From Candidatus Nanopusillus sp. (GTDB lineage: Archaea; Nanobdellota; Nanobdellia; Nanobdellales; Nanobdellaceae): a stretch of 15,433 nt of DNA. The position numbers were made by a program, and so were the translations under genes. Where the stretch lies: the NCBI GenBank assembly GCA_036845085.1, contig DAIUEN010000013.1:1-15433 (forward strand). Direction: 5' to 3'. Numbering within the stretch: position 1 is the stretch's first letter; every line of letters begins with the position of its first letter. The notes beneath the pieces are model-generated. The model ran no database searches. It was not told the origin of the DNA and saw only the letters and a list, made by a program, of their open reading frames with translations. Positions 1 to 15,433 of this stretch are shown here, piece after piece.

Positions 1-75
1 CTATATCCTTTCTCTTTTATTTTTAAATATAGATCATAATCTATTACTGTTGTTATTTGTTTTTTCTTTCTCAAA

Positions 76-609: not shown

Positions 610-649
610 AACATTTTAAATATTAGAAATATTTAAAAAATGATTTTAT

Positions 650-1687: not shown

Positions 1688-1774
1688 TGTTATATTATTA
1701 TAAAAAATTTTATTAATTTTTTATATTATCAGAGAACTCGGCATTCATCATCTGTTCAGATGAGAAGGCTTTCT

Positions 1775-2155
1775 TCATAAGAATATAATTCTTTCTATGT
1801 TATATTTTTTAAAATATTTTAATAAAATTTTTTCTAAATCTTCTTTTGACATATCTTTACCACTACACCAAGCAACATCTAGATCTATATATGTACAATC
1901 TTCTTCAGTATATGTACTTATTACTATATGGGATGTAGAGAGTACAGATATAAATGTTAGATCTTTATTTCCATTAAAATCTTCTGGAAATAGAATTGTT
2001 TTTTTGAATAATATTTTACTATTTAAAAACTTAGCCAATTCTTCTGATAAAAAATCATATAACTCACTTTTATTGTATATTTTATCTATTTTTATTATGC
2101 ATAACATTCTTTTAACGTCTTTAATAGACAATTTCCTATAAACATTATTTTCCAT
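1775..2155 (-). CDS. S-adenosylmethionine decarboxylase-like (SpeH/class 1b pyruvoyl enzyme family) protein with a non-canonical processing motif
   Basis: 126 aa, the size of archaeal SpeH. 'VLSTSHIVISTYTEE' aligns with the family motif around the self-cleavage serine (canonical ..ESH.(S/T)IHT(W/F)PE). 'DLDVAWCSGKD' resembles the conserved D.F.CG segment. Confidence 0.55.
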   Translation of the reverse strand: MENNVYRKLSIKDVKRMLCIIKIDKIYNKSELYDFLSEELAKFLNSKILFKKTILFPEDFNGNKDLTFISVLSTSHIVISTYTEEDCTYIDLDVAWCSGKDMSKEDLEKILLKYFKKYNIERIIFL

Positions 2156-2182
2156 CTTTAAAATATTTATAATATCTTTGCT

Positions 2183-2192
2183 TTAAAAAATA
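2183..2192 (+). promoter_or_regulatory. TATA-like box for the tRNA-Gln gene
   Basis: 'tttaaaaaat' is centred ~28 nt upstream of tRNA position 1 (2216). The same 60-bp AT-rich spacer must also carry the promoter of the divergent gene ending at 2155. Confidence 0.4.
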
Positions 2193-2215
2193 TTATATAT
2201 AAAAAGATCATTGAT

Positions 2216-2288
2216 AGCCCCGTCGTCTAGTGGTCTAGGATGTGGGGTTCTGGTCCCCATGACCGGGGTTCGAATCCCCGCGGGGCTA
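2216..2288 (+). tRNA. tRNA-Gln (anticodon CUG), no encoded CCA, no intron
   Basis: Hand-folded cloverleaf: acceptor AGCCCCG/CGGGGCT, D arm GTCT-agtggtcta-GGAT, anticodon stem TGGGG/CCCCA with loop ttCTGgt (U33, purine 37), T arm CGGGG-TTCGAAT-CCCCG, discriminator A. The A1-U72 pair is typical of archaeal tRNA-Gln. It is a GC-rich island in an AT-rich background. Confidence 0.9.
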
Positions 2289-2297
2289 TATAGCAAT

Positions 2298-2310
2298 CTT
2301 AATAAATTTA
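2298..2310 (+). promoter_or_regulatory. TATA-like box for CDS 2329..3177
   Basis: 'cttaataaattta' is centred ~25 nt upstream of the ATG at 2329, consistent with a leaderless transcript. Confidence 0.35.
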
Positions 2311-2328
2311 TCTTTAGTTTTAGTATGA

Positions 2329-3177
2329 ATGAGTAAAAAACTTGAAGAGCTACTTGATAGAGAAGACATAAGATATTTAATAAAAAATGCTAATAAAATA
2401 GAAGATCCGGAAAAATATAGAAGAGAATTTGAGGAGATGTCAAAATTATTAAGGAAAATTGATGCGCCTTTTAAATATATTATAAATAGATTTAGACTAC
2501 CGATTAAAGAGATCTTGAAATATTTAAATTTAGATGATATTTTAGTTAAAAAAGGTTGTTCCTATATTGGAAATCTATTAATTGTAACTAAACTTAAAAT
2601 AGATCATTATGTAAGTAACGTAGTTGATATAGTATGCAATAAAGATACTCTTCATGAGCAAGAAAAAACAGCATTAGAATATATATCCAGATATGATTAC
2701 GAATTTTTACCTTCTACAACATTTGGATTTGTAATAGACAATAAACTAATAATACCAAATTATTATGGAATATATGAATATATATTGTTGCGTCTAAATA
2801 ATAATCTTCCATTGTATATAATTTTAGGCGCTGAAGGAAACATATATATTAAAAAGGGAAAAATATCCGAAACGATATACTTTGAAGATCCAATACTGAT
2901 ATCTCTTTTATATAAATTTTATAGATCTCATGAGAGAGATTGGTATGATCTTAATATGTACGAAGATAAAAATCCTCATGAATTAAAGAGAATAATAGAA
3001 ATGGGAATTAGCGAAAATGATCTAGAAAAGGCTTTAAAATTATTCGATAAGAAAGATTTAGAAAAGATATTATCGAGAATTGAAGAATATATGAAAAGAA
3101 ATCCAAATACTGTATACCAGGGTTTAATTAGTATAGTAGAACGTATAATAGAAAAATTAAAATCTAAATACAAGTAA
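2329..3177 (+). CDS. hypothetical protein
   Basis: 282-aa ORF with a TATA-like box at the leaderless distance. Composition matches its neighbours and I recognise no motif. The antisense ORF 2976..3173 is treated as a shadow. Confidence 0.55.
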   Translation: MSKKLEELLDREDIRYLIKNANKIEDPEKYRREFEEMSKLLRKIDAPFKYIINRFRLPIKEILKYLNLDDILVKKGCSYIGNLLIVTKLKIDHYVSNVVDIVCNKDTLHEQEKTALEYISRYDYEFLPSTTFGFVIDNKLIIPNYYGIYEYILLRLNNNLPLYIILGAEGNIYIKKGKISETIYFEDPILISLLYKFYRSHERDWYDLNMYEDKNPHELKRIIEMGISENDLEKALKLFDKKDLEKILSRIEEYMKRNPNTVYQGLISIVERIIEKLKSKYK

Positions 3178-3200
3178 ATATCTTTAACCTATTTAATTAA

Positions 3201-3213
3201 ATTTTTAAAAATT
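3201..3213 (+). promoter_or_regulatory. TATA-like box for the HTH regulator / ACD transcription unit
   Basis: 'atttttaaaaatt' is centred ~28 nt upstream of the ATG at 3235. Confidence 0.35.
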
Positions 3214-3234
3214 GAATATAACTATGTTATAAAT

Positions 3235-3570
3235 ATGGGTATAAGATGTGAAGAATTTGCTTTAAAATATCTTCCTATGATAAGGAGGGAATTAGTAAAT
3301 ATACTATATGAAAAATACAATATGTCTCAATCTTTAATTGCTAAAAAACTATTAATAACTCAAGCTTCAGTATCTCAATATTTAAATGGAGTTAGAAGAA
3401 GAAATAAAATAGAATTTTCTGAAGAAGAAAAAAATATAATAATGACAATAGCTGAAGAATTAACAAGGAGAGATGTTGTTTTATCTGATTTAATGATATA
3501 CATATGTAAGATTTGTGATATGAGAAATAAAGGAATATCATGTCATATTTATAACGGTAAAAATATATAG
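3235..3570 (+). CDS. small helix-turn-helix transcriptional regulator (COG2522-like) with a C-terminal Cys/His cluster
   Basis: 111 aa. 'MSQSLIAKKLLITQASVSQYLNGVRR' is a classic HTH recognition segment of the small archaeal regulator family. The C-terminus 'CKICDMRNKGISCH' (CxxC-x8-CxH) suggests metal binding. Confidence 0.7.
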   Translation: MGIRCEEFALKYLPMIRRELVNILYEKYNMSQSLIAKKLLITQASVSQYLNGVRRRNKIEFSEEEKNIIMTIAEELTRRDVVLSDLMIYICKICDMRNKGISCHIYNGKNI

Positions 3571-3577
3571 GATTTTT

Positions 3578-4453
3578 ATGGGTATTTTTGATGTAAAATC
3601 TGTTGCTGTAGTTGGTGTATCCAATAATGAAAAAAAAGCAGGTAATATAATTTTTAGAAATTTAATAAAAAGATTTAACGGAGAAGTATTTCCTGTTAAT
3701 CCAAAATATGAAACTATATTAGGTATTAGATGTTATAAATCTTTAGAAGAAATAGAAAAAGATATAGATGCAGTTATTATTTCTATACCGGCTGAAGGTG
3801 TTCCAGAAGTAGTAAAACAAGCAGTTAATAAAAGAGCAAAGTTGGTTATAATAATTTCTTCTGGTTTTTCAGAAGTGGGAAGAAAAGATCTTGAAGAAGA
3901 AATACTAAAATATATAAAAAATAGTAACACTAGAGTATTAGGTCCTAATGGTTTAGGAATTTATGATCCATATACTGGATTAGACTCTTTTTTTATAGAA
4001 GATAATAGAATAAAGAGACCTAAAAAAGGTAATATTGCATTATTATCACAATCTGGAGCATTAGCAATGGCTTTTATGGAATGGTTATCTGAAAAAGATA
4101 TCGGAGTGTCTAAAATAATTTCTTACGGTAACAAAATAGATTTAGATGAAGTAGATTTAATCAAAGAACTTAATGAAGACTCGAACACGAAAGCAATATT
4201 TATTTACATGGAAGGATTAAGAGAAAATCGCGGGAGAGAATTTTTAGAATTATGTAACAAAATAAATAAACCTATAGTAGTTTTAAAAGCAGGTAAAAGT
4301 AAGAGGGGTGCTATAGCAGTTAGTTCACACACAGCGGCAATGGCTGGAGATTATGAAATATATTCTAATTTATTTAAACAATTCAATATAATTGAGGCTA
4401 AAAATATGCATGACTTTATGACATATCTTAAAACTTTGGCGATATACTTATAA
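3578..4453 (+). CDS. acdA: ADP-forming acetyl-CoA synthetase (NDP-forming acyl-CoA synthetase) alpha subunit, N-terminal part (CoA-binding and phosphohistidine domains)
   Basis: 'KSVAVVGVS', 'FPVNPKY' and 'VIISIPAEGVPEVV' mark the CoA-binding domain. 'LLSQSGALA' and the phosphohistidine loop 'AVSSHTAAMAGD' follow. The ORF ends at TAA 4451-4453, where full-length alpha subunits continue. Confidence 0.85.
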   Translation: MGIFDVKSVAVVGVSNNEKKAGNIIFRNLIKRFNGEVFPVNPKYETILGIRCYKSLEEIEKDIDAVIISIPAEGVPEVVKQAVNKRAKLVIIISSGFSEVGRKDLEEEILKYIKNSNTRVLGPNGLGIYDPYTGLDSFFIEDNRIKRPKKGNIALLSQSGALAMAFMEWLSEKDIGVSKIISYGNKIDLDEVDLIKELNEDSNTKAIFIYMEGLRENRGREFLELCNKINKPIVVLKAGKSKRGAIAVSSHTAAMAGDYEIYSNLFKQFNIIEAKNMHDFMTYLKTLAIYL

Positions 4454-4480
4454 TATCATAAACTGTAAATCAATATTATC

Positions 4481-4951
4481 ATGGTAGTTTATATCTATAC
4501 TAATGGGGGTGGAGAAGGAGTTTTAGCTACAGATTCATTAGAATTATTAAATATAGAAATTGAAGAAACTCCGGAGCATATAAAAGAGAAACTAAAACAA
4601 ATCTTACCATCTTTTGCATCTTTGAAGAATCCTATAGATGTTACAGCTCAAGCTAGCGAAGATCAATATCTTAGGGGTTTAGAAATAATAATTAATGATC
4701 CTAATACTGAAGGAGTTTTAGCTATACTTTTACCTCAATTATCATTATTTACAATTAATTTTCCTGAAAGATTTTCTAAAATGTTTTATAAGCAAAAGCC
4801 AGTAGTATTTGTGGTTTATGGTGGTGGTTTTACAGAAATTATTAAAAGAGAGTTAGAAAAATATGTACCAGTATTTGATTATCCTGACGAGGGGGCTAAA
4901 GCTTTAAAATTGTTGATAGATCTTAAGAAAAGTAAAAAATTATTTATCTAA
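4481..4951 (+). CDS. acdA: ADP-forming acetyl-CoA synthetase alpha subunit, C-terminal part (domain 5), as a separate ORF in the same frame
   Basis: 'VVYIYTNGGGEGVLATD' and 'LKNPIDVTAQA' match the conserved ..ITNaGGpGVLa.D and NP.D motifs of the alpha C-terminal domain. It shares the reading frame of 3578..4453 and is separated from it only by TAA-YHKL-TAA-INII. Confidence 0.75.
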   Translation: MVVYIYTNGGGEGVLATDSLELLNIEIEETPEHIKEKLKQILPSFASLKNPIDVTAQASEDQYLRGLEIIINDPNTEGVLAILLPQLSLFTINFPERFSKMFYKQKPVVFVVYGGGFTEIIKRELEKYVPVFDYPDEGAKALKLLIDLKKSKKLFI

Positions 4952-6239
4952 TTTTTCCTAATTTTGACAACGAAATATATACAGGACAGCTTTCTTTTCC
5001 TAGTTCATAACATTCTCCTTTAGTAATACAACTTGGCCCCATAACTTTACCATATATCTTTTGAAGATATTTAGCTACTGCTTCAAAGAAAATTCTTGTC
5101 TCTAATTGTGCTCTATGGCATGTTCTCTGTTCTATAATATATTCTATAGCTTGTTGTGGTATTAACATAGCTATCGGTATGTAAGTTCCCAATGGTATAT
5201 GATTTAGTTTTTCTATTATTTTTTCTTCTTTTTCTATAGCATGTTTAGAATATTCAACTACACGCTCAAATATATTTCTTATATCTTCTCTATTTTTTAT
5301 ATATGCTCCATAATATATACCTTTATATTCTAGAAATTGAGGCCAGGTCTTTGGAGGTAGAAGATATGGCATTATTTGTCTATGTCTTATGATTTGTCTT
5401 ATAATTGCTATTGGAAGTTCGCTTGTTATTAATATAGTGTCTAATGTATTATTTACACTAATATAAGTATTACTAGAATAATTTAAATCTAACTTAGTTC
5501 CGTATAATTCATTATATCCAAATTTTTCCATTAATTTTTTTTCATTAAACGATAAAGTTAGTGGTTTTTCTTTTTTAACTGGCTTTATTCCTAAATTTTC
5601 TTCTACAAATTTCTCTATTATTTCGCCCATTTCTACTAGATTTTCATTTTCTATTAATTTACTAACTTCTTTTAGATAATTAGCAAATTTAAAATAATCT
5701 CTGAATGGAGGAAACTGTAATATTACCCATGTCTCAGTTCCTAGAGGTAATATAAATCTAGCGGCTTCCTTAGGAATACCCTTTTCTATAGCATATTTAT
5801 AAGCTTCGAAATATGGAGCATATTTGTCTTCATAACCTAAATCACTTTTTAGTTCCGGAGGTTTTGAATATCTTAAAGAAAACTCTGTGCCCACACCATA
5901 TATTCCGAATCCAGGTCTTATGCCAAGCCACATTAAGAAAGATATAGAAATAGGAACTTCAATTAACATAAAATAATTCCCTGTTTCAATCATGTCTGGA
6001 TGATGCACTTCCATAAAAAGTTCAAATCTTCTATTAATTTCTTCTGGGTTTTTGTTTGCATAATCTATCAAATCTTCTAATCTTGACATAGAGATCTTTT
6101 TAGGTCCTCCAGTAGAGATTAAAGCTCTTAGGCCAATTATTTCTTTTGTTTCCCCTTTGGCAAATAAGATTTTATAATTTCCTATTTTTTGACTTTCTAA
6201 GATGCTAATAACCATTTTATATTGTTTTACTAAAATCAT
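4944..6239 (-). CDS. thyX: ThyX-like (FAD-dependent thymidylate synthase family) protein with two tandem ThyX-like domains
   Basis: 431 aa, about twice a normal ThyX. The first half has 'FSLRYSK' (S-x-RY) and 'KEAARFILPLGTET' (E.AR..LP). The second half has 'IIRQIIRHRQ' (the RHR motif), 'IPLGTY' and 'RTCHRAQLETR' (R....AQ.E.R). The C-terminus has C-x5-C-x7-C. Confidence 0.65.
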   Translation of the reverse strand: MILVKQYKMVISILESQKIGNYKILFAKGETKEIIGLRALISTGGPKKISMSRLEDLIDYANKNPEEINRRFELFMEVHHPDMIETGNYFMLIEVPISISFLMWLGIRPGFGIYGVGTEFSLRYSKPPELKSDLGYEDKYAPYFEAYKYAIEKGIPKEAARFILPLGTETWVILQFPPFRDYFKFANYLKEVSKLIENENLVEMGEIIEKFVEENLGIKPVKKEKPLTLSFNEKKLMEKFGYNELYGTKLDLNYSSNTYISVNNTLDTILITSELPIAIIRQIIRHRQIMPYLLPPKTWPQFLEYKGIYYGAYIKNREDIRNIFERVVEYSKHAIEKEEKIIEKLNHIPLGTYIPIAMLIPQQAIEYIIEQRTCHRAQLETRIFFEAVAKYLQKIYGKVMGPSCITKGECYELGKESCPVYISLSKLGKIR

Positions 6240-6324
6240 AAAAGATAACTTTTAATGTAACAAAGCATATTTTAGTACTATATATTTAAAAAATTTACTT
6301 TTATGTAGTTATCATTTTAGAAAA

Positions 6325-6337
6325 TTTTTTAAATATT
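6325..6337 (+). promoter_or_regulatory. TATA-like box for CDS 6356..7069
   Basis: 'ttttttaaatatt' is centred ~25 nt upstream of the ATG at 6356, within the 116-bp divergent intergenic region 6240-6355. Confidence 0.35.
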
Positions 6338-6355
6338 ATCTAATTTTCATATTTT

Positions 6356-7069
6356 ATGGTACAAAAGGTAGAAGAAATAATACGTCTGGTAGATCTTGCT
6401 AGAAAAGAAAAAGAGAAACTAGAAGAATTGATAAGATTGAAAAATATAATGTGGACGAAGAAAAAAAATATTTTAGAAAAAGTTAGAACAGTTAGAATAG
6501 AAAAGTTAGAAAATATAATCTATAATTATTATAGAGAATTTATTATTAGTGAATTAAAGAAGTACTTACCAGAATCAAACGAACTGATTAATTTTATGAA
6601 AGAATATTTATCTTTTTATAGTAATCTATATAAACATAAATTTTGTAGAGAATTAGATAAATTAATATCAAAATATAATAATAATAACTTAGAAGATATA
6701 ATTAACAGTAAGAAGTTTGAGATATTATCGAAATATATACTAAATGACTTAACTAAAATTATTACACATCAGCTTTTAGATATTTATGAAATATCAAAAG
6801 GTTGTAGACGCTTTAATGATAAATGTCTAAAAATACAAGAAATTATATCAAAAAATTACAAAGAAATATATGACATCAAAAACGATTATAAATCATTTGT
6901 AAATGGACTTTATAAGTATATAAACTACTATATAAATACTCTTAACAAATTTGTTTGGTATACTAAAGAGCTAAATGACGTACTAAGTAATAATGACTTT
7001 AAAAAAATATCAGAGTTATCAAAAAATGTAGAATTTTTAGAAATTTTGCATGCTCTTAATAGTTATTAA
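6356..7069 (+). CDS. hypothetical protein, helical or coiled-coil-like
   Basis: 237-aa ORF with an N-terminal K/E/L heptad-like segment ('ARKEKEKLEELIRLKN'). It has a TATA box at the leaderless distance and is followed by T-tracts. Confidence 0.5.
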   Translation: MVQKVEEIIRLVDLARKEKEKLEELIRLKNIMWTKKKNILEKVRTVRIEKLENIIYNYYREFIISELKKYLPESNELINFMKEYLSFYSNLYKHKFCRELDKLISKYNNNNLEDIINSKKFEILSKYILNDLTKIITHQLLDIYEISKGCRRFNDKCLKIQEIISKNYKEIYDIKNDYKSFVNGLYKYINYYINTLNKFVWYTKELNDVLSNNDFKKISELSKNVEFLEILHALNSY

Positions 7070-7078
7070 TATTTCTAA

Positions 7079-7089
7079 TTTTTATTTTT
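7079..7089 (+). terminator. oligo-T tract (TTTTTATTTTT), archaeal-type terminator candidate
   Basis: Two T5 runs lie 10-20 nt downstream of the stop codon at 7067-7069. Archaeal RNAP terminates at oligo-T. Confidence 0.35.
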
Positions 7090-7127
7090 GGTAATTAATA
7101 TTAATGAAATTTAAATATATATAAAGG

Positions 7128-7176
7128 GTCTTGTTAATATGTGTCGGATAACGGCAATTATCCGACTCTACAAGAC
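7128..7176. other. GC-rich nested inverted repeat: candidate small structured RNA or palindromic operator
   Basis: The outer arms GTCTTGT (7128-7134) and ACAAGAC (7170-7176) enclose the inner arms GTCGGATAA (7143-7151) and TTATCCGAC (7158-7166), with a 6-nt loop cggcaa. All pairings are perfect. The repeat directly follows 'tttaaatatatataaa' and is followed by 'cattttc'. Confidence 0.4.
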
Positions 7177-8070
7177 GAAGCATTTTCTACTTAAATAATT
7201 TTCTAGATGTTATTGTAACTTAATGATAATATAAGAAAAATTTAAAAATTTTTACTACAATAGAAATGATAGATCTTCTTTCTAGGTATAAACTAATAGA
7301 ATTTATAAGAAATATTGATTCTTGGAGAAAATCTGAAAAAGCAGCATTTATTGTTCTTCAAAAAGCTTTCTAATTACTATACAATAAAAACTCTATTATA
7401 AAATAATATCGAAAAATCCATATCATTATAAAAAATACGAAGAGTATTTTAAGATGATCAGAGAAATAGTTAAAGCAGGTCTACCCAAATATTTCTGTCA
7501 TGCAGAAATACCAGATTTACAAAGAGAATAGTCATTTTCTATAAATTTTAGTTGTTTAAATTTAGAAAAATATAATAATGAATTTACTAGACATATTAAA
7601 GAAAATGAGGATGAAAGTAAAACAGTTGACTCTAGAGAATTAGATAAATAACTTGAAGAAATGTTTTCTAAAGAAATAGGATTTTTTAAGTTTTCAGCAT
7701 GTGTGGAAGTTGTTTTAGCTATATGATCTTTTTGACCCAACTTAATATACCAATAGTTACTATGTAGTTAAATTTTTTTTAGTTTTTTATTTAGACTATA
7801 AATAAATCTAGCTTTTGATCTATATACAATAGCAACTTTATTAATGATGTTATATCAGAATTAGAGAGAATATCCCTTTGATGGAATATAAAGATTAGGA
7901 TTATTACTACCAAATATAAGTAACAAATTAATATGACAATTTCCGTTAATTAATTTTTAATAATTTAATCTACCCTAATTGATATAGAAATTTATCAAAA
8001 ATTTGTTGCATAATTATATAAGTCATCTTTGGTCTACTACTAAGTAGTAATATATTGTATTTTTTAATAA

Positions 8071-9306
8071 ATGTTATTCTATAAAAATAAATTTATGACA
8101 ACTCTGAAATTTACTCTGCTTATAGTAAGTTTCTTATTATTTTCTATGGTTAATTTTATTTTTTCTTATAACGTAGTTTATAAAGATACAGAATATATAC
8201 CTAACATAACTATAGAACCGAATATTGATAATTATTTATTTATTCCTGGTCAAAATATTTCCGGATATGTAATAATAAAAAATAACGATCCATACTATTA
8301 TCCACAGATTTTTTTAGCCATAATGTTGATCAAAGAAGATACTTATATGACAAGTAACAATCAAGTATTATATGCGGAATTAAAGATGATATCAAATTTA
8401 TTACCTTATCAAAACTATGTAGTAAATTTTACATATAGAATTCCTGAAAATATATCTTCTGGTAATTATAAATTAATGTTTTATCTATACACTGCAGTAA
8501 AGCACATAATAGGTAATCCAAATTTTTTTAATTCTACTTTTTATCGAGAAATATACATAAATAATACAGATTTTAATAATTATCCTTGGATATCTATTTT
8601 AAAAAATGAAACCAAATTAATTAATGATTCTAATATACTAAAATTAAATTTAGCTATATATTCTAACGATTCCACTTCTGCAAAAATAAGAGTTAAATTA
8701 GCTAAATGGGATGCTTTACTTTATGGACCAATATTGGATAGAATTTTTGTTATAAATTTGACAAAGGGATATCAAACTTTAATGTTCGATTTAGTAAATA
8801 TATCCAATTTTTATGCAGATTATTATTATCTTTTAATAGAAGTTTATTCTGAAGAGTTATTACAAGATATGTACATTATACCATATCATATTTATGGAGA
8901 AGCTATCTTATTTGATGGAATATATCTTGATAAAAATGGAAAACTTTTGGTAGTTTTGTCTACTTATCCTAATAATAGTATTGTTCATAAATTATATAAT
9001 GTAGAGCTTAAAGTATTTTCAAATAAACAAAAATTTACTAAAACAATTAAAATAGGTGATGTGGTTTATGATCATACAACTTATGTATACATTGAAGATT
9101 ACGTCCCTATTAGTAACGGAATGGATTTATGTTTTAATTTAACTTATCAGAAAGAATTTAGCGGTTTAGTATATTTATCAAATATATGTTACACTTATTA
9201 TGTAGAAGAGAATAAGAACTTTTCAATATCTTTAACTAGATTAAAAGTTATATTAGTAATGATTGTAACCTTAGCAATAATAACTTACTTTATACTAAAG
9301 AAATAA
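8071..9306 (+). CDS. surface-anchored glycoprotein candidate (N-terminal signal peptide, C-terminal TM anchor, dense N-glycosylation sequons)
   Basis: 411 aa. The hydrophobic N-terminus is 'TLKFTLLIVSFLLFSMVNFIFS' and the C-terminal TM is 'VILVMIVTLAIITYFILKK'. I counted 14 N-x-S/T sequons by hand. The true start may be the ATG at 8095, because 'tttaataaat' ends 23 nt upstream of it. Confidence 0.7.
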   Translation: MLFYKNKFMTTLKFTLLIVSFLLFSMVNFIFSYNVVYKDTEYIPNITIEPNIDNYLFIPGQNISGYVIIKNNDPYYYPQIFLAIMLIKEDTYMTSNNQVLYAELKMISNLLPYQNYVVNFTYRIPENISSGNYKLMFYLYTAVKHIIGNPNFFNSTFYREIYINNTDFNNYPWISILKNETKLINDSNILKLNLAIYSNDSTSAKIRVKLAKWDALLYGPILDRIFVINLTKGYQTLMFDLVNISNFYADYYYLLIEVYSEELLQDMYIIPYHIYGEAILFDGIYLDKNGKLLVVLSTYPNNSIVHKLYNVELKVFSNKQKFTKTIKIGDVVYDHTTYVYIEDYVPISNGMDLCFNLTYQKEFSGLVYLSNICYTYYVEENKNFSISLTRLKVILVMIVTLAIITYFILKK

Positions 9307-9314
9307 GTGTAAAA

Positions 9315-9324
9315 TTTATAAATA
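9315..9324 (+). promoter_or_regulatory. TATA box (contains TTATAAAT) for CDS 9349..10110
   Basis: An exact TTATAAAT at 9316-9323 ends 26 nt upstream of the ATG. Confidence 0.45.
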
Positions 9325-9348
9325 CTCTTATATATTTTATCTATTATA

Positions 9349-10110
9349 ATGTTTAGATCTATAATGATATATCTGAAATATTACAAGTTACTAACATTGT
9401 TATTTATGGTAATATTCTTTTATTTTGGTCACTATTCTCATGGACAAACATCCAAAATTTATGATGGAAATTATCTTTGTGATTATAGTCAATTGAGAAC
9501 ATTAAAATTTAATGCAATATATCCTCGAGGTTTCCCTCCTATGTTTCCTTTTTCTCTATGTGCAGAAACATATACTAGATATGAAACAACCTATGTAACT
9601 TATACTTCTACAGTAACAAGTACAGTAACCAATACAGTTTATGTTACTAATACTGTTACTGTAACCCAAACTGTGACTGATACTTACTATGTATCCACAA
9701 CATTAACATATTACGTATATAGAACATCTACAACATATGTTACTGTAACAAATACAGTAACTTATACGACAACACGAACATCTACTATTTATACTACAGT
9801 TTATTCTACAACAACTACGACAATATATGGAACTCTTACTGTTACATCTACTTCTACAGTAACTTCTACAGCTACTGCTTATACTACAGCTACAACAACA
9901 GTGTATTCTACAGCTACTTTTACATCGACTATCGCAGGAACCGCTACTACAACATCTACAATATGGAGTACTATATATACTACACTTTCTACAACTCAGA
10001 CACAAACAAGTACAATTACTAGTACAGTAACTAACAATGTATATACTACTGTTACTCTTACATCTACTGTAACGGCTAAAAAAACTTATTATACTCTATT
10101 ACAATCATAA
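9349..10110 (+). CDS. secreted Thr-rich protein (signal peptide, short 2-Cys head, ~170-aa Thr-alternating array, no membrane anchor)
   Basis: 253 aa. The signal-like N-terminus 'KLLTLLFMVIFFYFGHYSHG' is followed by 'YLC...SLC'. From residue ~74 the array runs 'TYVTYTSTVTSTVTNTVYVTNTVTVTQTVTD...'. It has a strong TATA box at the leaderless distance. Confidence 0.7.
   Translation: MFRSIMIYLKYYKLLTLLFMVIFFYFGHYSHGQTSKIYDGNYLCDYSQLRTLKFNAIYPRGFPPMFPFSLCAETYTRYETTYVTYTSTVTSTVTNTVYVTNTVTVTQTVTDTYYVSTTLTYYVYRTSTTYVTVTNTVTYTTTRTSTIYTTVYSTTTTTIYGTLTVTSTSTVTSTATAYTTATTTVYSTATFTSTIAGTATTTSTIWSTIYTTLSTTQTQTSTITSTVTNNVYTTVTLTSTVTAKKTYYTLLQS
9568..10074 (+). repeat. low-complexity Thr-codon array (ACN-GTN/TAY/TCN period-6 DNA repeat)
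   Basis: By hand count, about 79 of 169 codons are Thr, frequently at every second codon. It generates the spurious Cys/Ser/Arg-rich antisense ORF 9703..10005. Confidence 0.85.
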
Positions 10111-10115
10111 ATACG

Positions 10116-11246
10116 ATGAATAATACAAAGTATAGTTTGAAGAAGATTCTTAGTTATATTTTATTGTTTATTTTTGTATTATATAATTTTCCATCTATTT
10201 ATAGTAATTGTCAACTTATTGGTTTCAATCCTATAAATGGTTGTGAAATGTATGAATGTTATGTTACTGTAACATCTACTGTATATGTTACTAACACAGT
10301 TTATCGAACTGTAACTTACACATCTACATATTATTCTACAGTTACTAATACCGTTACAGTACGAGTTACAAAGACATATACATATTATACTACAGTCACC
10401 GATACCGTTACTGTTACATCAACAGTTACTTCGACTAATACAGTTACCGCAACGACAACGCGATATCTTACAATTACTACAACTTATGTTCTAACTAGTA
10501 CAGTAAATTCTGCTACAGCCACCACAACAGTATATGTCACTAACACTCAAACAACAACGACAACTGTAACTGCTTCAACAAATACTGTGACCTCAACAGT
10601 TACTACAACTATAACAACAAATATAGCTACAACCACCATTACTACGACAACAACATTAACAACAACATCTACAGTTTATTCTACTATTACTAATACACAA
10701 CATACAACAACCACAACAACAACTACATTTACTAATACATATTACTCAACAACAACCACCACAACCACCCTTAACTATGTATCTACTATAAGATTTAGAG
10801 GAATTCTTAATCTGGGATCAATTAATCAAAGTTTCGTCCAGTCTATAGACTTTCCTATAGTTGGAGAAAGAACAATTTTCTATTTAAATATATCCAATTT
10901 AGGAAATGCTACTGTAAATAATATGATTTTAAGATTTTCTCTTACTGGAGGAAATATAAGGATGTTTTATAATAATACCGAAATTTCCTCATTAGATGCT
11001 ATTGTTATTTCTTCTGAAATTCCACCAAACGGCTATATAATAATACCATTTGACATGAATATACTAGCTTTTGGATCTTCTAGTTTAGATATATATGTTT
11101 TTGTAGATAACCAATACTTAGGGTATGTAACCTATCAATTTAACGTTAAGCCAGAAAATAGACAAAGTTCTCTAGTTATCTCTGAAAATATAATATATAT
11201 TTTGGCAATTTTTATTACCGTTTTACTAATATGGTTAATCATATAG
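10116..11246 (+). CDS. membrane-anchored Thr-rich surface protein (signal peptide, 3-Cys head, ~177-aa Thr-rich array, CARDB-like beta-sandwich region, C-terminal TM)
   Basis: 376 aa. The signal is 'ILSYILLFIFVLYNFPSIYS' and the head is 'NCQLIGFNPINGCEMYEC'. The array runs from 'YVTVTSTVYVTNTV' to 'HTTTTTTTTFTNTYYSTTTTTTT'. 'FYLNISNLGNATVNNMILRFSL' resembles CARDB/APHP-type domains, and the C-terminal TM is 'IIYILAIFITVLLIWLII'. It starts 5 nt after the previous stop. Confidence 0.75.
   Translation: MNNTKYSLKKILSYILLFIFVLYNFPSIYSNCQLIGFNPINGCEMYECYVTVTSTVYVTNTVYRTVTYTSTYYSTVTNTVTVRVTKTYTYYTTVTDTVTVTSTVTSTNTVTATTTRYLTITTTYVLTSTVNSATATTTVYVTNTQTTTTTVTASTNTVTSTVTTTITTNIATTTITTTTTLTTTSTVYSTITNTQHTTTTTTTTFTNTYYSTTTTTTTLNYVSTIRFRGILNLGSINQSFVQSIDFPIVGERTIFYLNISNLGNATVNNMILRFSLTGGNIRMFYNNTEISSLDAIVISSEIPPNGYIIIPFDMNILAFGSSSLDIYVFVDNQYLGYVTYQFNVKPENRQSSLVISENIIYILAIFITVLLIWLII
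10260..10790 (+). repeat. low-complexity Thr-codon array, shifting from alternating T-x-T to homopolymeric Thr runs
   Basis: This covers residues ~49-225 of the CDS. Mixed ACA/ACT/ACC/ACG codons are used. The region around 10700-10775 is nearly G-free on the + strand. Confidence 0.85.
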
Positions 11247-11263
11247 CTCATATTAATCACATC

Positions 11264-11271
11264 TTAAAAAT
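11264..11271 (+). promoter_or_regulatory. TATA-like box for CDS 11293..12513
   Basis: 'ttaaaaat' ends 22 nt upstream of the ATG at 11293. Confidence 0.35.
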
Positions 11272-11292
11272 TTTTCTTTTATTTATTGGATT

Positions 11293-12513
11293 ATGAACCT
11301 AAAAACATTAATAATTTTAGTATTTTTAGTTTTTATTATTTTGGTGACGTTAGATTATTTTTTAGCAAATTTTCCTAAAAAAAATTTAAATATAAAAGTA
11401 TTGGAAATAACTATTCATAATCCAACAGAATGTACACTTTTTGTCCCATACCAACAAAAAATACGGGTTAATGGTTCAATTATGGAGAAATACAAAATAA
11501 ATACAGATGGATCTAATGTTTTTTTCTTTACTAATTTAAGTAATCCTAATGAGTCAATTTTATTTTCATGGTTTGCTGGATACTATGGAAATGAAGCTAT
11601 ATGGTGGGTCAAATTAACTGATAAAATCCCGCCAAATGGAAATATTACAATATATATGTATATAGGATCTCCAGAAGATAATTACTATAAATCTTATTAT
11701 CCGTACGTAGGAATATCTTCTTTTGTATATAATAATTATAGCTGGGGACCTAAGAGCCAATATGATAATGGTAAATTTGTTTTTACTTTTTATGGATGGT
11801 TTTATGAGACATTAGACGGATGGTATGGCCTTATTAAACATGGTTCATATAATGTGACTCCAACAAATAAGGGAGTTGAAATGATTGGAAATACTATAAA
11901 TCAAGGATCTTATATAATGCCATATAATACTGGTAATATTAGTATAGCTCCAATAATTGTAGAAGAGGGTTGGTTTTATGATGGAGAAGCAGATGCTCAT
12001 ACAATTTCTTTATTTGGCGAATCATTTTTTGGAAGGAGTAGAGCAGTTTTTGCTTCTGGAGTCAACAAGCTAGGTGGTTCTACACCAGCTCTTTACGGTT
12101 CCGTATTTGTCCAATATGAATACTATAATCTATCACCTAGAATATATATATCTTACATAGGAAGTAACAATTCTTTACAGTTATACGAAGGACCTTTTAT
12201 TATCAATAAAACCAGTAATTATTTATATACATACTTTGCAATAGACTTTTGTGATAATGATAGTAAAGTATACGCAAGTACTGGATACTTTTTATTAGAT
12301 AACATACCGCCAATTTCCCTATTAGGTACTCTAGATAGTAATTATAGAGTTTCTGTGGAATTTGATAGGAAAATGTTATCTGGTAATCATTTTGCAATTG
12401 GTGCTGGGAGCGGTTTAGAATCTACTTCCTTACAATCTGTTTTCTGGATTGTAGGTAGAACCCACCCACCAAGAGGAATTATGCCAGAAGTATATTTTAG
12501 AGAAATAAGATAG
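11293..12513 (+). CDS. N-terminally anchored extracellular protein with a DUF2341-like plus ConA/LamG-like region
   Basis: 406 aa. The signal-anchor is 'LIILVFLVFIILVTL'. 'DGSNVFFF...ILFSWFAGYYGNEAIWWVKLTDKIPPNGNITIYMYIG' fits the DUF2341 pattern (dG.di.F...l.yw......a.vWVK.p.i...g..tIYmYYG). I counted 11 N-x-S/T sequons by hand. Confidence 0.6.
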   Translation: MNLKTLIILVFLVFIILVTLDYFLANFPKKNLNIKVLEITIHNPTECTLFVPYQQKIRVNGSIMEKYKINTDGSNVFFFTNLSNPNESILFSWFAGYYGNEAIWWVKLTDKIPPNGNITIYMYIGSPEDNYYKSYYPYVGISSFVYNNYSWGPKSQYDNGKFVFTFYGWFYETLDGWYGLIKHGSYNVTPTNKGVEMIGNTINQGSYIMPYNTGNISIAPIIVEEGWFYDGEADAHTISLFGESFFGRSRAVFASGVNKLGGSTPALYGSVFVQYEYYNLSPRIYISYIGSNNSLQLYEGPFIINKTSNYLYTYFAIDFCDNDSKVYASTGYFLLDNIPPISLLGTLDSNYRVSVEFDRKMLSGNHFAIGAGSGLESTSLQSVFWIVGRTHPPRGIMPEVYFREIR

Positions 12514-12524
12514 TGACATTATTT

Positions 12525-12533
12525 TTTATAAAT
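12525..12533 (+). promoter_or_regulatory. TATA box (contains TTATAAAT) for the GT-C gene
   Basis: An exact TTATAAAT at 12526-12533 ends 21 nt upstream of the ATG at 12554. Confidence 0.45.
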
Positions 12534-12553
12534 TTTTTTAAAGTAGATAAGTT

Positions 12554-13738
12554 ATGAATATATTTTATAAAATATATGAATTCATCCAAAGAAATATAAT
12601 AATTGAAAAAATCTATAAGTTTATATTAAAATATCCATTTTATTTAATCTTGTCTATTCTGCTAATTTTTTATACATATAAAACGATCTCTGTATTTTAT
12701 CCAATTGATTCTTATATATCTGACGAAGTATGGTATGCGTCTTCTGCCTATAATATTTTTACAAAGATCTTTAGAATTCCTATTGAACAATATGTACCTT
12801 TTCCAGAAGGAAAGAATCTTGAAAATTATTTTAATCTAGAACATCCCCCATTAGCCAAATATATAATAGGATTTTTTATATTTCTATTTGGATATACATA
12901 CTGGGCTTGGAGAATTCCTAGTTGGATAATAGGAAATCTTATAGTAATTTTATCATTTTTAATAACTAGAAAAATAGTTGGTGAAAATGTTTTTGGGAAT
13001 ATTGCTGGTATAATTGTAGCAGCTTTGATTATGTCAGATCCTAATATATGGATTATGCATGGAATAGCTATGTTAGACATATATTTAGCATTCTTCTCTC
13101 TATTGTCAATATATTATCTATTAAAAGATAAAATTATTTTGTCTTCAATATCATATGGTTTAGCATTATCTTCAAAATTACCAGCCGTATTTTTAATATT
13201 CCCTTTTTTATACTATATAACAAAAAAATATAATGAAAGAATAAAAAGATTAATATATGGAATATTGATTCCTTTTTCTGTGTATGTGATTTTAAATATA
13301 CCGCTATTAGTATATTTTGGTCTAACTAAATGGTTTTATGATAGTTTTTTACATGGTTTCGAATGGGGAATAACTTCAGGTCACATATCGGATGCTCCAA
13401 ATCAGGTTTCAAAACCATGGCAATGGTTATTAAATATAAATCCATTTTATTTTGGGACATACTATAGCAATGTATTTTATGCGAATGTAAATATATATTT
13501 TATGATCTTATGGTTAGTAACCATACCAATAATGTTTTTAGTTAGAGATAATAAAATTATTCTAGTAGGAATTTATCCGTTATTTATGTATTTTGGTTAT
13601 ATATTGATATATATCTTGGGAAATGATACATTGTTCAGTTTCTATGTTTCCCAATTTATGCCTTTAATATACATTTATGTAATCTCCTCTTTGTTTTTGT
13701 TGGGCTTAAAATATTACTACAGAGATTATAAAATTTAA
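12554..13738 (+). CDS. GT-C fold glycosyltransferase, PMT-like (GT39/PMT_2 family; polyprenyl-phosphate-sugar:protein O-glycosyltransferase candidate)
   Basis: 394 aa and multi-pass, with roughly 9-11 hydrophobic segments. The first extracytoplasmic loop carries the acidic motif 'ISDEVWYASSAYNIF' (compare FDE.YY..dA in bacterial and eukaryotic PMTs). It is followed by 'LEHPPLAKYIIGF' (compare the HPPLGK signature). Confidence 0.72.
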   Translation: MNIFYKIYEFIQRNIIIEKIYKFILKYPFYLILSILLIFYTYKTISVFYPIDSYISDEVWYASSAYNIFTKIFRIPIEQYVPFPEGKNLENYFNLEHPPLAKYIIGFFIFLFGYTYWAWRIPSWIIGNLIVILSFLITRKIVGENVFGNIAGIIVAALIMSDPNIWIMHGIAMLDIYLAFFSLLSIYYLLKDKIILSSISYGLALSSKLPAVFLIFPFLYYITKKYNERIKRLIYGILIPFSVYVILNIPLLVYFGLTKWFYDSFLHGFEWGITSGHISDAPNQVSKPWQWLLNINPFYFGTYYSNVFYANVNIYFMILWLVTIPIMFLVRDNKIILVGIYPLFMYFGYILIYILGNDTLFSFYVSQFMPLIYIYVISSLFLLGLKYYYRDYKI

Positions 13739-13743
13739 AAACG

Positions 13744-13752
13744 TTTATAAAT
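13744..13752 (+). promoter_or_regulatory. TATA box (contains TTATAAAT) for the small membrane protein
   Basis: An exact TTATAAAT at 13745-13752 ends 22 nt upstream of the ATG at 13774. This supports that ATG over the TTG at 13756 used by the ORF track. Confidence 0.4.
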
Positions 13753-13773
13753 GTATTGATAAAAATAATTTTT

Positions 13774-14013
13774 ATGTCTGAAGAATATGAAGAACTTTAT
13801 GCAACGAAACCTCAAGTTATTCTTTCTTTAATTACTACAATAATAGTTTTATCAATTATATTACCTACCTTATTTTTATTCCCATTCAATATTAAATTAT
13901 TTCTGGCTGGTGCTGGAACTATTCTTTTATTGATTATATTAGATGTTTTTGTTTATTTATCTTATTTAGGAAAATTTCCCCTTTATAGAATTAAGAGATA
14001 TAAGAAGGAATGA
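13774..14013 (+). CDS. small two-TM membrane protein (79 aa from ATG 13774; the ORF track extends to TTG 13756)
   Basis: It has two hydrophobic helices, 'VILSLITTIIVLSIILPTLFLF' and 'LFLAGAGTILLLIILDVFVYLSYL', and a basic tail 'RIKRYKKE'. The TATA box sits at the leaderless distance from ATG 13774. Confidence 0.5.
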   Translation: MSEEYEELYATKPQVILSLITTIIVLSIILPTLFLFPFNIKLFLAGAGTILLLIILDVFVYLSYLGKFPLYRIKRYKKE

Positions 14014-14043
14014 TAAATTGTTTTAACTATTAAGTAGTAAATG

Positions 14044-14053
14044 CTTATAAATA
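14044..14053 (+). promoter_or_regulatory. TATA box (contains TTATAAAT) for CDS 14073..15425
   Basis: An exact TTATAAAT at 14045-14052 ends 21 nt upstream of the ATG at 14073. Confidence 0.45.
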
Positions 14054-14072
14054 TTATTTATAAGATTTTTTT

Positions 14073-15425
14073 ATGATTAAAAATCTAGACTCACTAGTAA
14101 GTAGTATAAAAAATTTTAGAAATAAAATTTATAATAATCTAGATTTATTATTACAAATTTTTGTACGTTCTTTGGCGTTATCTACTAGGTATGGTAGTGC
14201 TCTTATGGTAGTACACTATAATTTTTCAAATATGCCAGATATTGTTAAATTTAGTGGAATTAAGAAAAAGATTATAGATTTATTCCAAAGAGAAGAAATC
14301 GTATATATATCTGCAGTGATATCTACTATAGCACTATTAATGTTTTTTACAAATATTCTCAATATGGATAAATATTATCAAACGGATATTTTAGTTAATC
14401 AAAGTATAGATGTAGATAATACAAATAAGAAAATAGTTTTTTGGGTAGTCCCTTGGTATAGAGAAAATTATACAATAAGTGGAGTTGAGGAAATTATAAA
14501 AGTAATAGAAAATTACAAATACAATAATATATATGTTGGCTTAGTTATTCCTTTAGATCAATTGGAACAAAAAGGACAATATGTATCTGTAATAAATAAT
14601 ACTATAAACTATATTATAAACAAAAGACCTGAATTATCTAATACGATATTCATCAATATTTTTCCTACATCTTCAGAAACTTTTAGAGGAGATCTTATAA
14701 ATTATGAGCTTTCCCAAGATCATGCAAAGTATATTACTTATATAACAAAAAAGTTGGTTGATAATGGATATAATATATATATTGGATTTAGTGAAATGGA
14801 TGGTTTAGTAAATAGAAATCCTAACTTATTAATTAAAAATTATGAAATAATACTAAATGAATTAGTTAAAGAAGGTGTAAATCTTAATAAAGTAGGGCTA
14901 TATTATTATAGTACTCATAATGTGGTCATAAATAATTTTAAATTAGTTGGCGATATGTTATTAAACTTAGCTAATAATTACGGAATAAAATCTAATGTAT
15001 ACATAGGTTTAGATAATTATAATTATAGATTTTCCGAATGTGATATGAATGGCAAGGCAGATTTACCAAATTACTTTGCTTTAAGAATTAAAGAATTATC
15101 TGAATATTATAAAGGAAATGATAAAATTAAAATAATGGTTGGAGAAATAGGAGTACCTCTGGGAAAAGAATGCGTTTCTAATTTATGGTACGATTTATCT
15201 AAGGGATGGGATTATGAAAAAGTTCTAAAATATTCTAAAGATAGTATGATTATGTGGAAATTAGTATTAGATTCTTATAAAGAATTTGATAATAATCTAT
15301 CAAATAAAATAAGTTTGGTTGGTATCTATGAAGTTGGAGGGAAAGAATATAATATATTTCTTCTTCCACAGGAAGAAAAAGATAATATTATTAAATACAT
15401 TATAGAATTCTCTATGTCAGGATAG
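14073..15425 (+). CDS. membrane-anchored extracellular protein with a (beta/alpha)8-barrel-like pattern; possible clan GH-A-like glycosidase (function speculative)
   Basis: 450 aa with one TM ('IVYISAVISTIALLMFFTNIL'). It is followed by about eight alternating hydrophobic strand/helix units: IVFWVVPW, IYVGLVIPL, TIFINIFPT, IYIGFSEMDG, KVGLYYYST, NVYIGLDNY, IKIMVGEIGVP, ISLVGIYEVGG. Glu residues sit at the ends of putative strands 4 and 7. Confidence 0.55.
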   Translation: MIKNLDSLVSSIKNFRNKIYNNLDLLLQIFVRSLALSTRYGSALMVVHYNFSNMPDIVKFSGIKKKIIDLFQREEIVYISAVISTIALLMFFTNILNMDKYYQTDILVNQSIDVDNTNKKIVFWVVPWYRENYTISGVEEIIKVIENYKYNNIYVGLVIPLDQLEQKGQYVSVINNTINYIINKRPELSNTIFINIFPTSSETFRGDLINYELSQDHAKYITYITKKLVDNGYNIYIGFSEMDGLVNRNPNLLIKNYEIILNELVKEGVNLNKVGLYYYSTHNVVINNFKLVGDMLLNLANNYGIKSNVYIGLDNYNYRFSECDMNGKADLPNYFALRIKELSEYYKGNDKIKIMVGEIGVPLGKECVSNLWYDLSKGWDYEKVLKYSKDSMIMWKLVLDSYKEFDNNLSNKISLVGIYEVGGKEYNIFLLPQEEKDNIIKYIIEFSMSG

Positions 15426-15433
15426 TACTAAAT

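Follow-up and report, generated by a model that had tools for sequence, protein, structure and literature searches.

Surface proteins rich in serine and threonine are, as a class, already known from archaea. Both the threonine cluster of the haloarchaeal S-layer glycoprotein and the pili of Sulfolobales belong to exported, hydroxyl-rich surface proteins of low charge (PMC6098224, PMC7347861), and the adhesive pili of Sulfolobales, which are O-glycosylated, contain 37% Ser/Thr and only 1.5% charged residues (PMC7347861). The present analysis concerns two adjacent genes on a contig of 15,433 nucleotides from Candidatus Nanopusillus sp. (DAIUEN010000013.1, positions 1 to 15,433, hereafter called the window): gene A (9349..10110, forward strand), which encodes an anchorless protein of 253 residues, and gene B (10116..11246, forward strand), which encodes its membrane-anchored paralogue of 376 residues. 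A long stretch of each protein has a hydroxyl-bearing residue, mostly Thr, at every second position and is referred to as the ladder. The A/B ladders share with the S-layer and pilus proteins their export, their hydroxyl-rich composition and their low charge (1.6% charged residues), and with the Sulfolobales pili also a thermoacidophilic habitat and expected glycosylation. They differ in that Thr and Tyr keep one unbroken period-2 phase over 100–366 residues, and in that the ladder is the distal bulk of the protein, in two matched chains and with a predicted glycan, instead of a short linker next to the membrane or the surface of a globular pilin domain.

Curli combine an anchorless subunit (CsgA) with a surface-retained paralogue (CsgB), side by side and beta-rich. 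Curli subunits, however, are made of Q/N-rich repeats of 19–23 residues, whereas the A/B ladders have neither a repeat unit nor turn residues; moreover, the A-then-B order with 1-nt coupling suggests equimolar partners, and the A/B system has no dedicated secretion channel. The serine-rich repeat glycoproteins Fap1 and GspB, a further case of a dipeptide period in a glycosylated protein, form glycosylated fibrils of variable length from long Ser-x arrays, with dedicated glycosylation genes nearby. They are single-chain, bacterial and based on Ser, whereas A and B are two chains, archaeal and based on Thr. Fap1 and GspB also need SecA2/Y2 export and LPXTG anchoring, neither of which is present in the A/B cluster: when accessory Sec and LPXTG components were sought there, the only SecY2 match was noise in a different protein (E 0.04, 12.7 bits against a cutoff of 249.6). 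CelA of C. bescii resembles A in having a period-2 Thr array in a secreted protein of a thermophile and a PMT-family GT-C glycosyltransferase (Cbes_1864) in its locus (PMC6151902). Its partner residue is Pro, however, whereas that of A and B is Val, Ser, Thr, Tyr or Ile, with 0.08% Pro; its linkers are short and lie between enzyme domains, unlike the long A/B ladders; and the GT-C of the window, with 394 aa, is shorter and has its nearest homologues in an N-glycan gene neighbourhood. Finally, the threads of S. acidocaldarius (Saci_0406) are non-type-IV fibres of Ig (immunoglobulin)-like domains joined by donor-strand complementation, with putative O-mannose (PMC11607397). By analogy, the Ig-like domain of B could receive the conserved terminal strand of A, but the Saci_0406 subunits are globular beta-domains in a beads-on-a-string polymer, with no Thr ladder and no sequence similarity to A or B. 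No literature description of the A and B genes was found, and as far as found the single-phase hydroxyl ladder, its distal position, the matched anchorless/anchored pair and the coordinated hypervariable length have not been described.

The reading favoured here, to which I give a probability of roughly 0.45, makes A the anchorless member of a two-chain, low-charge and probably glycosylated surface stalk or fibril, in which B provides the anchor. In such a structure, A would be exported by Sec and its signal cleaved, leaving a Cys-bearing head, an uninterrupted, extended and two-faced strand (Thr and Tyr hydroxyls on one face, Val, Ser, Thr and Ile on the other) and a conserved tail. A and B would be made together from their tightly coupled genes and would run alongside each other, their ladders being equally long, with their heads tied distally by one or more interchain disulfides and the tail of A near the membrane-proximal Ig-like domain of B. 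The ladder would be O-glycosylated, possibly by the PMT-like GT-C encoded in the same cluster, and the transmembrane helix of B would anchor this long low-charge projection. The two chains could form a side-by-side ribbon, pack face to face, or be tied at their ends.

The starting point is the ladder itself. A preliminary description of the window, made from its letters alone, had reported a period-2 Thr ladder of about 47% Thr and devoid of Pro, and on closer analysis the pattern is stricter than claimed. The ladder of A (aa 74–249, 9568..10095, forward strand) consists of 88 (T/Y/S)-x dipeptides, with 46% Thr over 176 residues and neither a Pro nor an N-x-S/T sequon. Compared with shuffles, the Thr autocorrelation of A alternates in sign, with z between +4.1 and +5.5 for all even lags and between −3.8 and −5.6 for all odd ones, and TxTxT occurs 30 times, against 4.9 ± 2.5 expected from shuffles. 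The two-residue period is thereby confirmed, far beyond chance. In the first phase 84 of the 88 positions are Thr, Tyr or Ser (T67 Y15 S2 and 4 others), while the second phase is mixed (V21 S15 T14 Y6 I6 A6 and others), and over 180 residues no slip of phase is detected by two-state segmentation. At the DNA level the ladder is not a clean tandem repeat: Tandem Repeats Finder (TRF) reports only fragments of 12–24 nt with 75–90% match, and the Thr codons are mixed (ACA/ACT/ACC/ACG).

Pooling 40 A and B ladders (6,623 residues) gave T 49%, S 12%, V 12%, Y 7%, I 5%, N 4.1%, Gln 1.9%, Gly 0.56%, Asp 0.41%, Cys 0.29% and Pro 0.08%, with the low total of charged residues given above and about 25–26% of V, I, L and Y together. 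Tyr recurs at intervals of 5–20 residues, and Lys and Arg are nearly absent. No period beyond 2 was common to the 40 ladders when aromatic, turn-type, aliphatic and Ser residues were autocorrelated up to lag 40 (best pooled z 1.2, at lag 8). In 8 of 20 A ladders there are zero slips over 108–366 residues, the longest being that of locus L027 (zero over 366 aa). Over the 20 loci, slips per 100 aa amount to 0.57 in A versus 1.25 in B, and the better phase-keeping of A may reflect recombination in even units or selection. The B ladders share a conserved, in-phase proximal block of ~74 aa.

The preliminary description had proposed a search for similar arrays in related archaeal genomes, and this search was productive. 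Positional orthologues of A were found in three named taxa, Ca. Nanopusillus acidilobi 7A (Nps_02620), Ca. Nanobsidianus stetteri Nst1 (Nst1_357) and Nanopusillus metagenome-assembled genomes (MAGs). The genome scan located the family only in N. acidilobi 7A, two Nanopusillus MAGs and N. stetteri Nst1, and a metagenome scan added 36 further loci, with the A frame intact throughout; within these scans, the A/B ladder system is found only in Nanopusillus-type Nanoarchaeota. The pair in the window has all the features of the others, that is, a signal, a Cys head, a (T/Y)-x ladder, a TYYT-type C-terminus and an adjacent anchored B. The C-domain of the window B is ~50% identical to those of the N. 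acidilobi, Nanopusillus MAG and N. stetteri proteins, which makes the window a distinct lineage of the same hot-spring group of Nanoarchaeota; the window B also has homologues on contig OBNano.

Two kinds of covariation link A to B, both seen in a set of 20 unique complete A/B pairs whose loci are not fully independent. One concerns length. The A ladders range from 102 to 366 aa and the B ladders from 100 to 378 aa, with a Pearson r of 0.994, a Spearman coefficient of 0.97 and a mean absolute difference of 6.75 aa (n = 20). When loci were paired by C-domain identity, the change in A versus that in B over ten sister-pair contrasts gave r = 0.989; the length covariation is therefore no phylogenetic artefact. 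L013 and L027, with 97% C-domain identity, have A/B ladders of 200/194 and 366/378 aa, respectively; the corresponding figures are 171/166 and 129/122 aa for L019 and L024 (95%), and 102/110 and 221/220 aa for L009 and L031 (85%). These contrasts indicate rapid changes of ladder length that A and B undergo together. It is the distal ladder that varies, the proximal 60–90 aa being 94–95% identical in DNA; positionally conserved are the C-terminal ~55 aa of A with its tail and the proximal ~45–90 aa of B, while the distal parts expand and contract.

The other covariation concerns the heads. Head Cys counts (A,B) are (1,5) in 12 pairs, (1,3) in four, (2,6) in one and (2,4) in two, so that the parity of A and B agrees in 19 of the 20 pairs, and it switches together in three sister contrasts. 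In the relatives, A heads with two Cys have them in a CxC motif. Where the counts of both heads are odd, an interchain bond would be demanded. A third link is gene coupling, the distance between the A stop and the B ATG being 1 nt in 31 loci and 5 nt in the window. The earlier suggestion that A docks onto its anchored paralogue thus acquires strong comparative support from length, Cys parity and the 1-nt coupling. Because the two ladders change length so quickly and in concert, the pair may act at the interface with the host or the environment; it might, for example, serve in adhesion, act as a spacer or recognise the host.

Metagenome assembly may collapse repetitive genes or render them chimeric, and two loci, L035 and L020, are possible cases. 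In L035 (2850–4281) the signal and head are of A type but share one ORF (open reading frame) with a long ladder and a B C-domain, through either recombination between ladders or a collapsed assembly; L020 has a disrupted B gene. Some protection is afforded by the genome of N. acidilobi 7A, which is complete and comes from a cultured organism, by the N. stetteri Nst1 assembly and by a five-fold re-assembly of the window allele, the identical A protein having been assembled independently on 5 contigs from 4 data sources.

A number of observations weigh against the two-chain arrangement. The B ladders have 1–3 phase slips where A has none, which makes continuous in-register beta pairing over the full length doubtful, and the window is the sole exception to the agreement in Cys parity, with two Cys in A and three in B. 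AlphaFold2 gave no confident ladder structure, the predicted local distance difference test score (pLDDT) staying below 40: its mean was 39 for A alone, with 30–40 over the ladder, and the ladder of B, modelled with an 8-sequence alignment, likewise scored 30–40, which is too low to use. Looking for A in proteomics, as had been proposed, yielded no peptide support, since the genes of the N. acidilobi cluster (Nps_02605 to Nps_02625) are without abundance values in the proteome of that organism (PMC4935971 Supplementary Data 1). Mature N. acidilobi A, on the other hand, gives only one normal-sized tryptic peptide, so that its absence is expected, and the N. acidilobi S-layer protein likewise went undetected for want of tryptic sites (PMC4935971). 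Wurch et al. list the A orthologue with '1 TM' (transmembrane segment) and no signal-peptide flag, an annotation under which A may be held by an uncleaved N-terminal anchor. Beside the homologues of the cluster's GT-C in S. acidocaldarius, S. solfataricus and Thermoproteus there are no Thr-rich genes; this weakens the connection drawn between glycosyltransferase and ladder, and the enzyme may elaborate N-glycans instead of O-glycosylating the ladder. Finally, gene conversion between A and B is active and alone could equalise their lengths: DNA tracts of at least 85% identity shared by A and B cover 0–60% of the A ladder in relatives, some of the conversion tracts being out of register.

Conversion is at the heart of the principal rival explanation, that A and B are independent mucin-like O-glycosylated stalks or glycocalyx proteins, with A either released or retained by an N-terminal signal anchor that stays uncleaved, and with lengths equalised by conversion of tandem paralogues. 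Tracts of 100–230 nt with 80–95% identity occur in most relatives, L035 has an apparent A-B fusion, a PMT-like gene lies within the cluster, and the annotation '1 TM, no signal peptide' suits an A that holds itself in the membrane. Composition and length polymorphism are also typical of glycosylated stalks (T 49% plus S 12%, low complexity, lengths of 100–378 aa over strains). Yet lengths are matched where little or no tract is shared, namely in the window (0%, 180/178 aa), L024 (0%, 129/122), L017 (8%, 173/176) and L012 (14%, 179/170); between A and B of the window, third-codon identity is 0.45, close to a rough expectation of ~0.4 from the Thr codon usage of the ladder. As judged by these comparisons, gene conversion contributes to the length match but does not explain all of it. 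Nor does ladder conversion account for the covariation of Cys parity, as the heads are not alike, or for the conserved C-terminal tail and the 1-nt gene coupling. A ladder with ~25% Val, Ile, Leu and Tyr, practically no Pro (0.08%) and strict beta-type alternation is, moreover, unusual for a solvent-exposed mucin-type linker and departs from the Pro-rich, hydrophilic composition of disordered mucins. Independent stalks are for these reasons considered somewhat unlikely. The equal lengths could also mean that B nucleates the in-register parallel stacking of many A chains into a curli-like templated cross-beta polymer. Such stacking needs equal length and similar sequence, and would explain both the covariation and a benefit from conversion; the ladders are strongly beta-prone without breakers (T 49%, V 12%, Y 7%, I 5%, Gly plus Pro below 0.7%), and an anchorless subunit and an anchored paralogue of matching length come from adjacent genes. 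This polymer is nevertheless judged decidedly unlikely, since there are no turn-forming positions for a serpentine fold and no Q/N-rich repeat units of curli type (Gln 1.9%, Asn 4.1%), 1-nt translational coupling suggests near-equimolar synthesis and not an excess of A, and A, with its single Cys, is better suited to one cross-link in each pair than to a polymer; AlphaFold2 is uninformative on this point.

The preliminary description had likened the ladder to the T-x-T faces of beta-solenoids, and in a solenoid with a flat T-x-T face, of the ice-binding-protein or adhesin type, Thr at alternate positions would line one whole face of a strand. The strict period-2 Thr/Tyr phase and the long beta strands drawn by AlphaFold2 speak for it. 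Ice-binding (antifreeze) solenoids, however, have fixed coils of 12–19 residues with Gly/Asn/Cys/Asp turns and 2–3 Thr per coil, which the A/B ladders lack, and the organisms carrying the latter live at ~80 °C. No coil-length periodicity is consistent over the 40 ladders, TRF returning only fragments of 12–24 nt; Gly (0.56%), Pro (0.08%) and Asp (0.4%) are too scarce to supply turns; a solenoid neither needs nor predicts an unbroken phase of up to 366 residues; length varies 3.7-fold, in dipeptide-compatible steps, between near-identical strains; and pLDDT stays below 40, with no PDB sequence match. The models draw long hairpins and not a solenoid but are too unconfident to use. The likeness is not supported, and a solenoid is regarded as very improbable. 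That A is a non-functional low-complexity tract or a mis-called ORF can practically be dismissed, although it agrees with the lack of proteomic detection and of HMMER matches. An exhaustive phmmer search of A against 1.84 billion representatives returned one marginal, unrelated Thr-rich match (P0012, E 8e-4), and a word-indexed homology search returned nothing, not even A itself; four proteins of the A family are absent from that clustered collection, which makes the latter result uninformative. Phmmer with A failed to recover B as well, and the composition correction of HMMER hides ladder similarity, so that these searches say nothing of other lineages and the HMMER negatives carry no information. 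By contrast, position, frame, signal peptide and tail are conserved over three named taxa and tens of metagenome loci, a 253-codon ORF is not expected by chance in DNA of 25% GC, and dN/dS (the ratio of non-synonymous to synonymous substitution rates) is below 1. In the ladder it is 0.26–0.8, compared with 0.2–0.3 in most C-domain comparisons, a pattern of weaker purifying selection than on the C-domain and not of neutrality. Varying array length or frame in close relatives had been named beforehand as a sign of a non-functional tract; length does vary, 3.7-fold, but frame, tail and the match to the length of B are conserved, so that the variation does not imply absence of function.

The favoured two-chain stalk includes glycosylation, for which there are several clues. 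The last gene of the cluster (12554..13738, forward strand) encodes a PMT-like GT-C glycosyltransferase of GT39/83 type (394 aa), identified with Pfam and NCBIfam. It matches PF13231 (PMT_2) at 36.6 bits (cutoff 26.1) and PF02366 (PMT) at 30.4 bits (cutoff 22.7); its best NCBIfam match is the protein O-mannosyltransferase NF058602 (E 5.5e-13), at 48.5 bits against a cutoff of 800 and over aa 32–209 only. With 394 aa against a 530-position profile, it lacks the architecture of a full-length O-mannosyltransferase, and a PDB sequence search gave no match. The gene is present in 17 of the 17 loci that reach far enough downstream, and a SDEVWY motif follows TM1 in the window and in all 17. An Asp-Glu motif in the first extracytoplasmic loop is catalytic in PMTs; related GT-C enzymes such as ArnT have a similar motif, so that SDEVWY is not specific to PMTs. 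Outside Nanoarchaeota, the closest homologues are GT39 enzymes of Sulfolobales (46–50% identity), followed by Thermoproteus (42–45%). Since these are relatives of the hosts, lateral transfer is suggested. Such identities are high for an enzyme common to Nanoarchaeota and Crenarchaeota, and the gene may have passed between the lineages of symbiont and host. The S. acidocaldarius homologue is agl1 (saci0421), beside agl2, agl3 and agl4, for which a role in N-glycan assembly has been proposed, not demonstrated; Haloferax AglS, an extracytoplasmic enzyme using dolichyl-phosphate mannose that finishes N-glycans, provides a precedent. In C. bescii, on the other hand, a GT39 enzyme adjoining its alternating Thr-Pro linker substrate is documented (PMC6151902).

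The ladders themselves contain only 13 N-sequons, against 46 ± 4.4 expected, a 3.5-fold depletion despite ~61% Ser plus Thr, while the flanking surface proteins carry 11–14 each. Ladder Asn is almost always found in an N-T-(V/I/A/Q) context, in all loci (e.g. 9568–10095 and 10266–10787 in the window). The surface of N. acidilobi is glycosylated and lectin-reactive (PMC4935971). From the synteny of the PMT-like gene, the depletion of sequons and the lectin-positive surface, the ladder is probably glycosylated; that the co-encoded GT-C adds the O-glycans is plausible from synteny, though it can be put forward only tentatively. The two-residue period had been taken to set the ladder apart from a glycosylated linker; this argument is weak, because known O-glycosylated stalks have dipeptide periods (Thr-Pro in CelA, PMC6151902).

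Nanoarchaeota are obligate ectosymbionts, and the A/B locus is a concrete candidate for host attachment or recognition. It is lineage-specific, hypervariable yet coordinated in length, and testable, being present in the cultivated N. acidilobi. At ~0.33 nm per residue, the textbook value for an extended chain, a fully extended ladder would measure ~60 nm in the window and 33–125 nm over strains. The cells are 100–300 nm across (PMC4935971). In population studies, hypothetical cell-surface proteins were flagged as the fastest-evolving nanoarchaeal genes, with a reported excess of non-synonymous variation (PMC6142677), a report that a role of A and B in host contact or recognition would fit. A PMT-family glycosyltransferase adjoins the most Thr-dense proteins found in these genomes, while the enzymes of archaeal O-glycosylation were called unidentified or elusive in 2018 and 2024 (PMC6098224, PMC11607397), that of Sulfolobus still 'elusive' (PMC11607397). 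An unbroken two-residue phase of up to 366 residues, with hardly any turn or charged residues, is also an unusual problem of protein design at 80 °C and pH 3–4. A bolder version, unlikely as a whole, would see in the pair an undescribed archaeal fibre, a two-chain, in-register hydroxyl-ladder ribbon with a disulfide-capped tip and a strain-tuned length, serving as tether and ruler of the ectosymbiosis. Its length would be re-tuned by coordinated expansion and contraction to match the envelope of a particular crenarchaeal host, and the ribbon would be the substrate of the GT39-like enzyme encoded beside it, which may derive from the host and would be the archaeal protein O-glycosyltransferase so long sought.

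Gene A, supported by the ORF call and by its positional orthologues, begins with a Sec-type signal peptide (aa 1–32, 9349..9444) whose n-region is basic, whose hydrophobic core spans 13 residues (LLTLLFMVIFFYF) and whose c-region reads GHYSHG; predicted cleavage after SHG (SHG|Q) satisfies the −3/−1 rule, and in the alignment the c-region of the orthologues is conserved, with Pro at −4 and S/A/G at −1. A class III pilin signal was rejected, the n- and h-regions being Sec-like, as was a lipobox in the A family, no member of which carries Cys at +1 relative to the predicted cleavage. The head (aa 33–73, 41 residues, 9445..9567), defined by orthologue alignment and Cys table, contains Cys44 and Cys71 and would yield the tryptic peptides IYDGNYLCDYSQLR and GFPPMFPFSLCAETYTR. 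Cys71 occupies the conserved pre-ladder position, whereas Cys44 lies inside an insertion of ~40 aa specific to the window lineage, the head being elsewhere a few residues around one or two Cys. The signal peptide and small two-Cys head of the preliminary description are thus real, as is the absence of an own membrane anchor, neither a C-terminal TM nor a lipobox being present in A. Its statement that a sorting tail was also missing was mistaken, having overlooked the C-terminal TYYTLLQS (10084..10107), whose equivalent ends every A orthologue. The family consensus is x-Q-T-Y-Y-T-L-I-Q-S, with the variants KTYYTLLQS (window), ETYFYLVQS, QTYYYLVQS and QTYYTLMQS, and the tail aligns with the junction between ladder and C-domain in B (TYYS...LNYVS). 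In longer orthologues, a conserved stretch of ~55 aa with ST(I/V)WST(I/V)YTT precedes the tail; alleles of ~100 aa (e.g. L006, L009) lack the Trp motif.

Read from the sequence, a TATA-like box (TTTATAAATA, 9316..9325, forward strand) ends 24 nt upstream of the A ATG and is a possible archaeal promoter of a near-leaderless A-B transcript. A scan for bacterial sigma-70 promoters and terminators, which is not applicable to archaea, found fewer sites than in shuffles. A 100-aa Cys/Ser/Arg-rich ORF on the reverse strand (9703..10005) was rejected as a gene, being the mere shadow of the ACN/GTN array (its reverse complement); a similar shadow ORF occurs in L014.

Gene B lies 5 nt downstream of A, as first described. 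In its product, a signal peptide and a head with three Cys precede the ladder (aa 51–224, 10266–10787), which is followed by an Ig-like beta-sandwich (aa ~240–345) and a C-terminal TM (aa ~354–376). In the AlphaFold2 model, the sandwich reaches a pLDDT of 76–88 and is the only part resolved; with Foldseek it gave only generic Ig-like, macroglobulin, PapD-like and transglutaminase-barrel matches. As the Ig-like domain is next to the membrane, ladder and head must be distal, the reverse of the classical arrangement in which a Thr-rich linker lies close to the membrane. A is collinear with the signal, head and ladder of B (alignment z 4.3 in the window and 5–10 in relatives, against phase-preserving dipeptide shuffles) and ends where B goes on into poly-Thr and then the Ig-like domain; by this alignment, A is a truncated paralogue of B. 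Profile searches of Pfam, NCBIfam and PHROGs had no match for A or B; in the PDB, no sequence matched B, and the best match to A was not significant (E about 8).

The conserved gene order is a 401/411-aa surface protein, A, B, a 397/406-aa protein and the PMT-like GT-C. In N. acidilobi the cluster corresponds to Nps_02625, 02620 (A), 02615 (B), 02610 and 02605, all annotated 'uncharacterized' except for a predicted mannosyltransferase; the A and B ladders of this organism measure 200 and 194 aa. In the window, the upstream member (8071..9306, forward strand, 411 aa) has a signal peptide, 14 N-sequons and a C-terminal TM anchor, and the downstream member (11293..12513, forward strand, 406 aa) an N-terminal TM, 11 sequons and a weak DUF2341 match. 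The 406-aa protein also matches phrog_7548, of unknown function (E 2e-11, aa 87–398), a link to proteins of prokaryotic viruses, whether phages or viruses of archaea.

The window as a whole has ~25% GC and carries genes for TYW1, an AdoMetDC-like protein, a split ADP-forming acyl-CoA synthetase alpha subunit and a ThyX-like protein. An intact tRNA-Gln (CTG) lies at 2215–2289 (ARAGORN and Rfam). The acyl-CoA synthetase subunit is encoded by two adjacent ORFs (3578–4453 and 4481–4951); the same split is seen in relatives and agrees with the split genes known from Nanoarchaeota. In Nanopusillus and Nanobsidianus this gene abuts the first gene of the cluster, while in the window ~3 kb are inserted between them (4944–8070), with the ThyX-like gene on the reverse strand, a 237-aa ORF without family and an ORF-poor stretch of ~1 kb (7070–8070). 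Downstream of the cluster, Nanopusillus has a pilin-like gene (MKGISPIIATILLIV...) that is not in the window. In the Nanopusillus loci L013 (13130–13612), L012 (4406–4873) and L015 (3046–3513), the PMT-like gene is followed by one for a pilin-like protein whose signal is of class III (MKGISPIIATILLIVMTVAIAG...); the window has instead a small ORF with two TMs (13756–14013) and an unrelated ORF of 450 aa.

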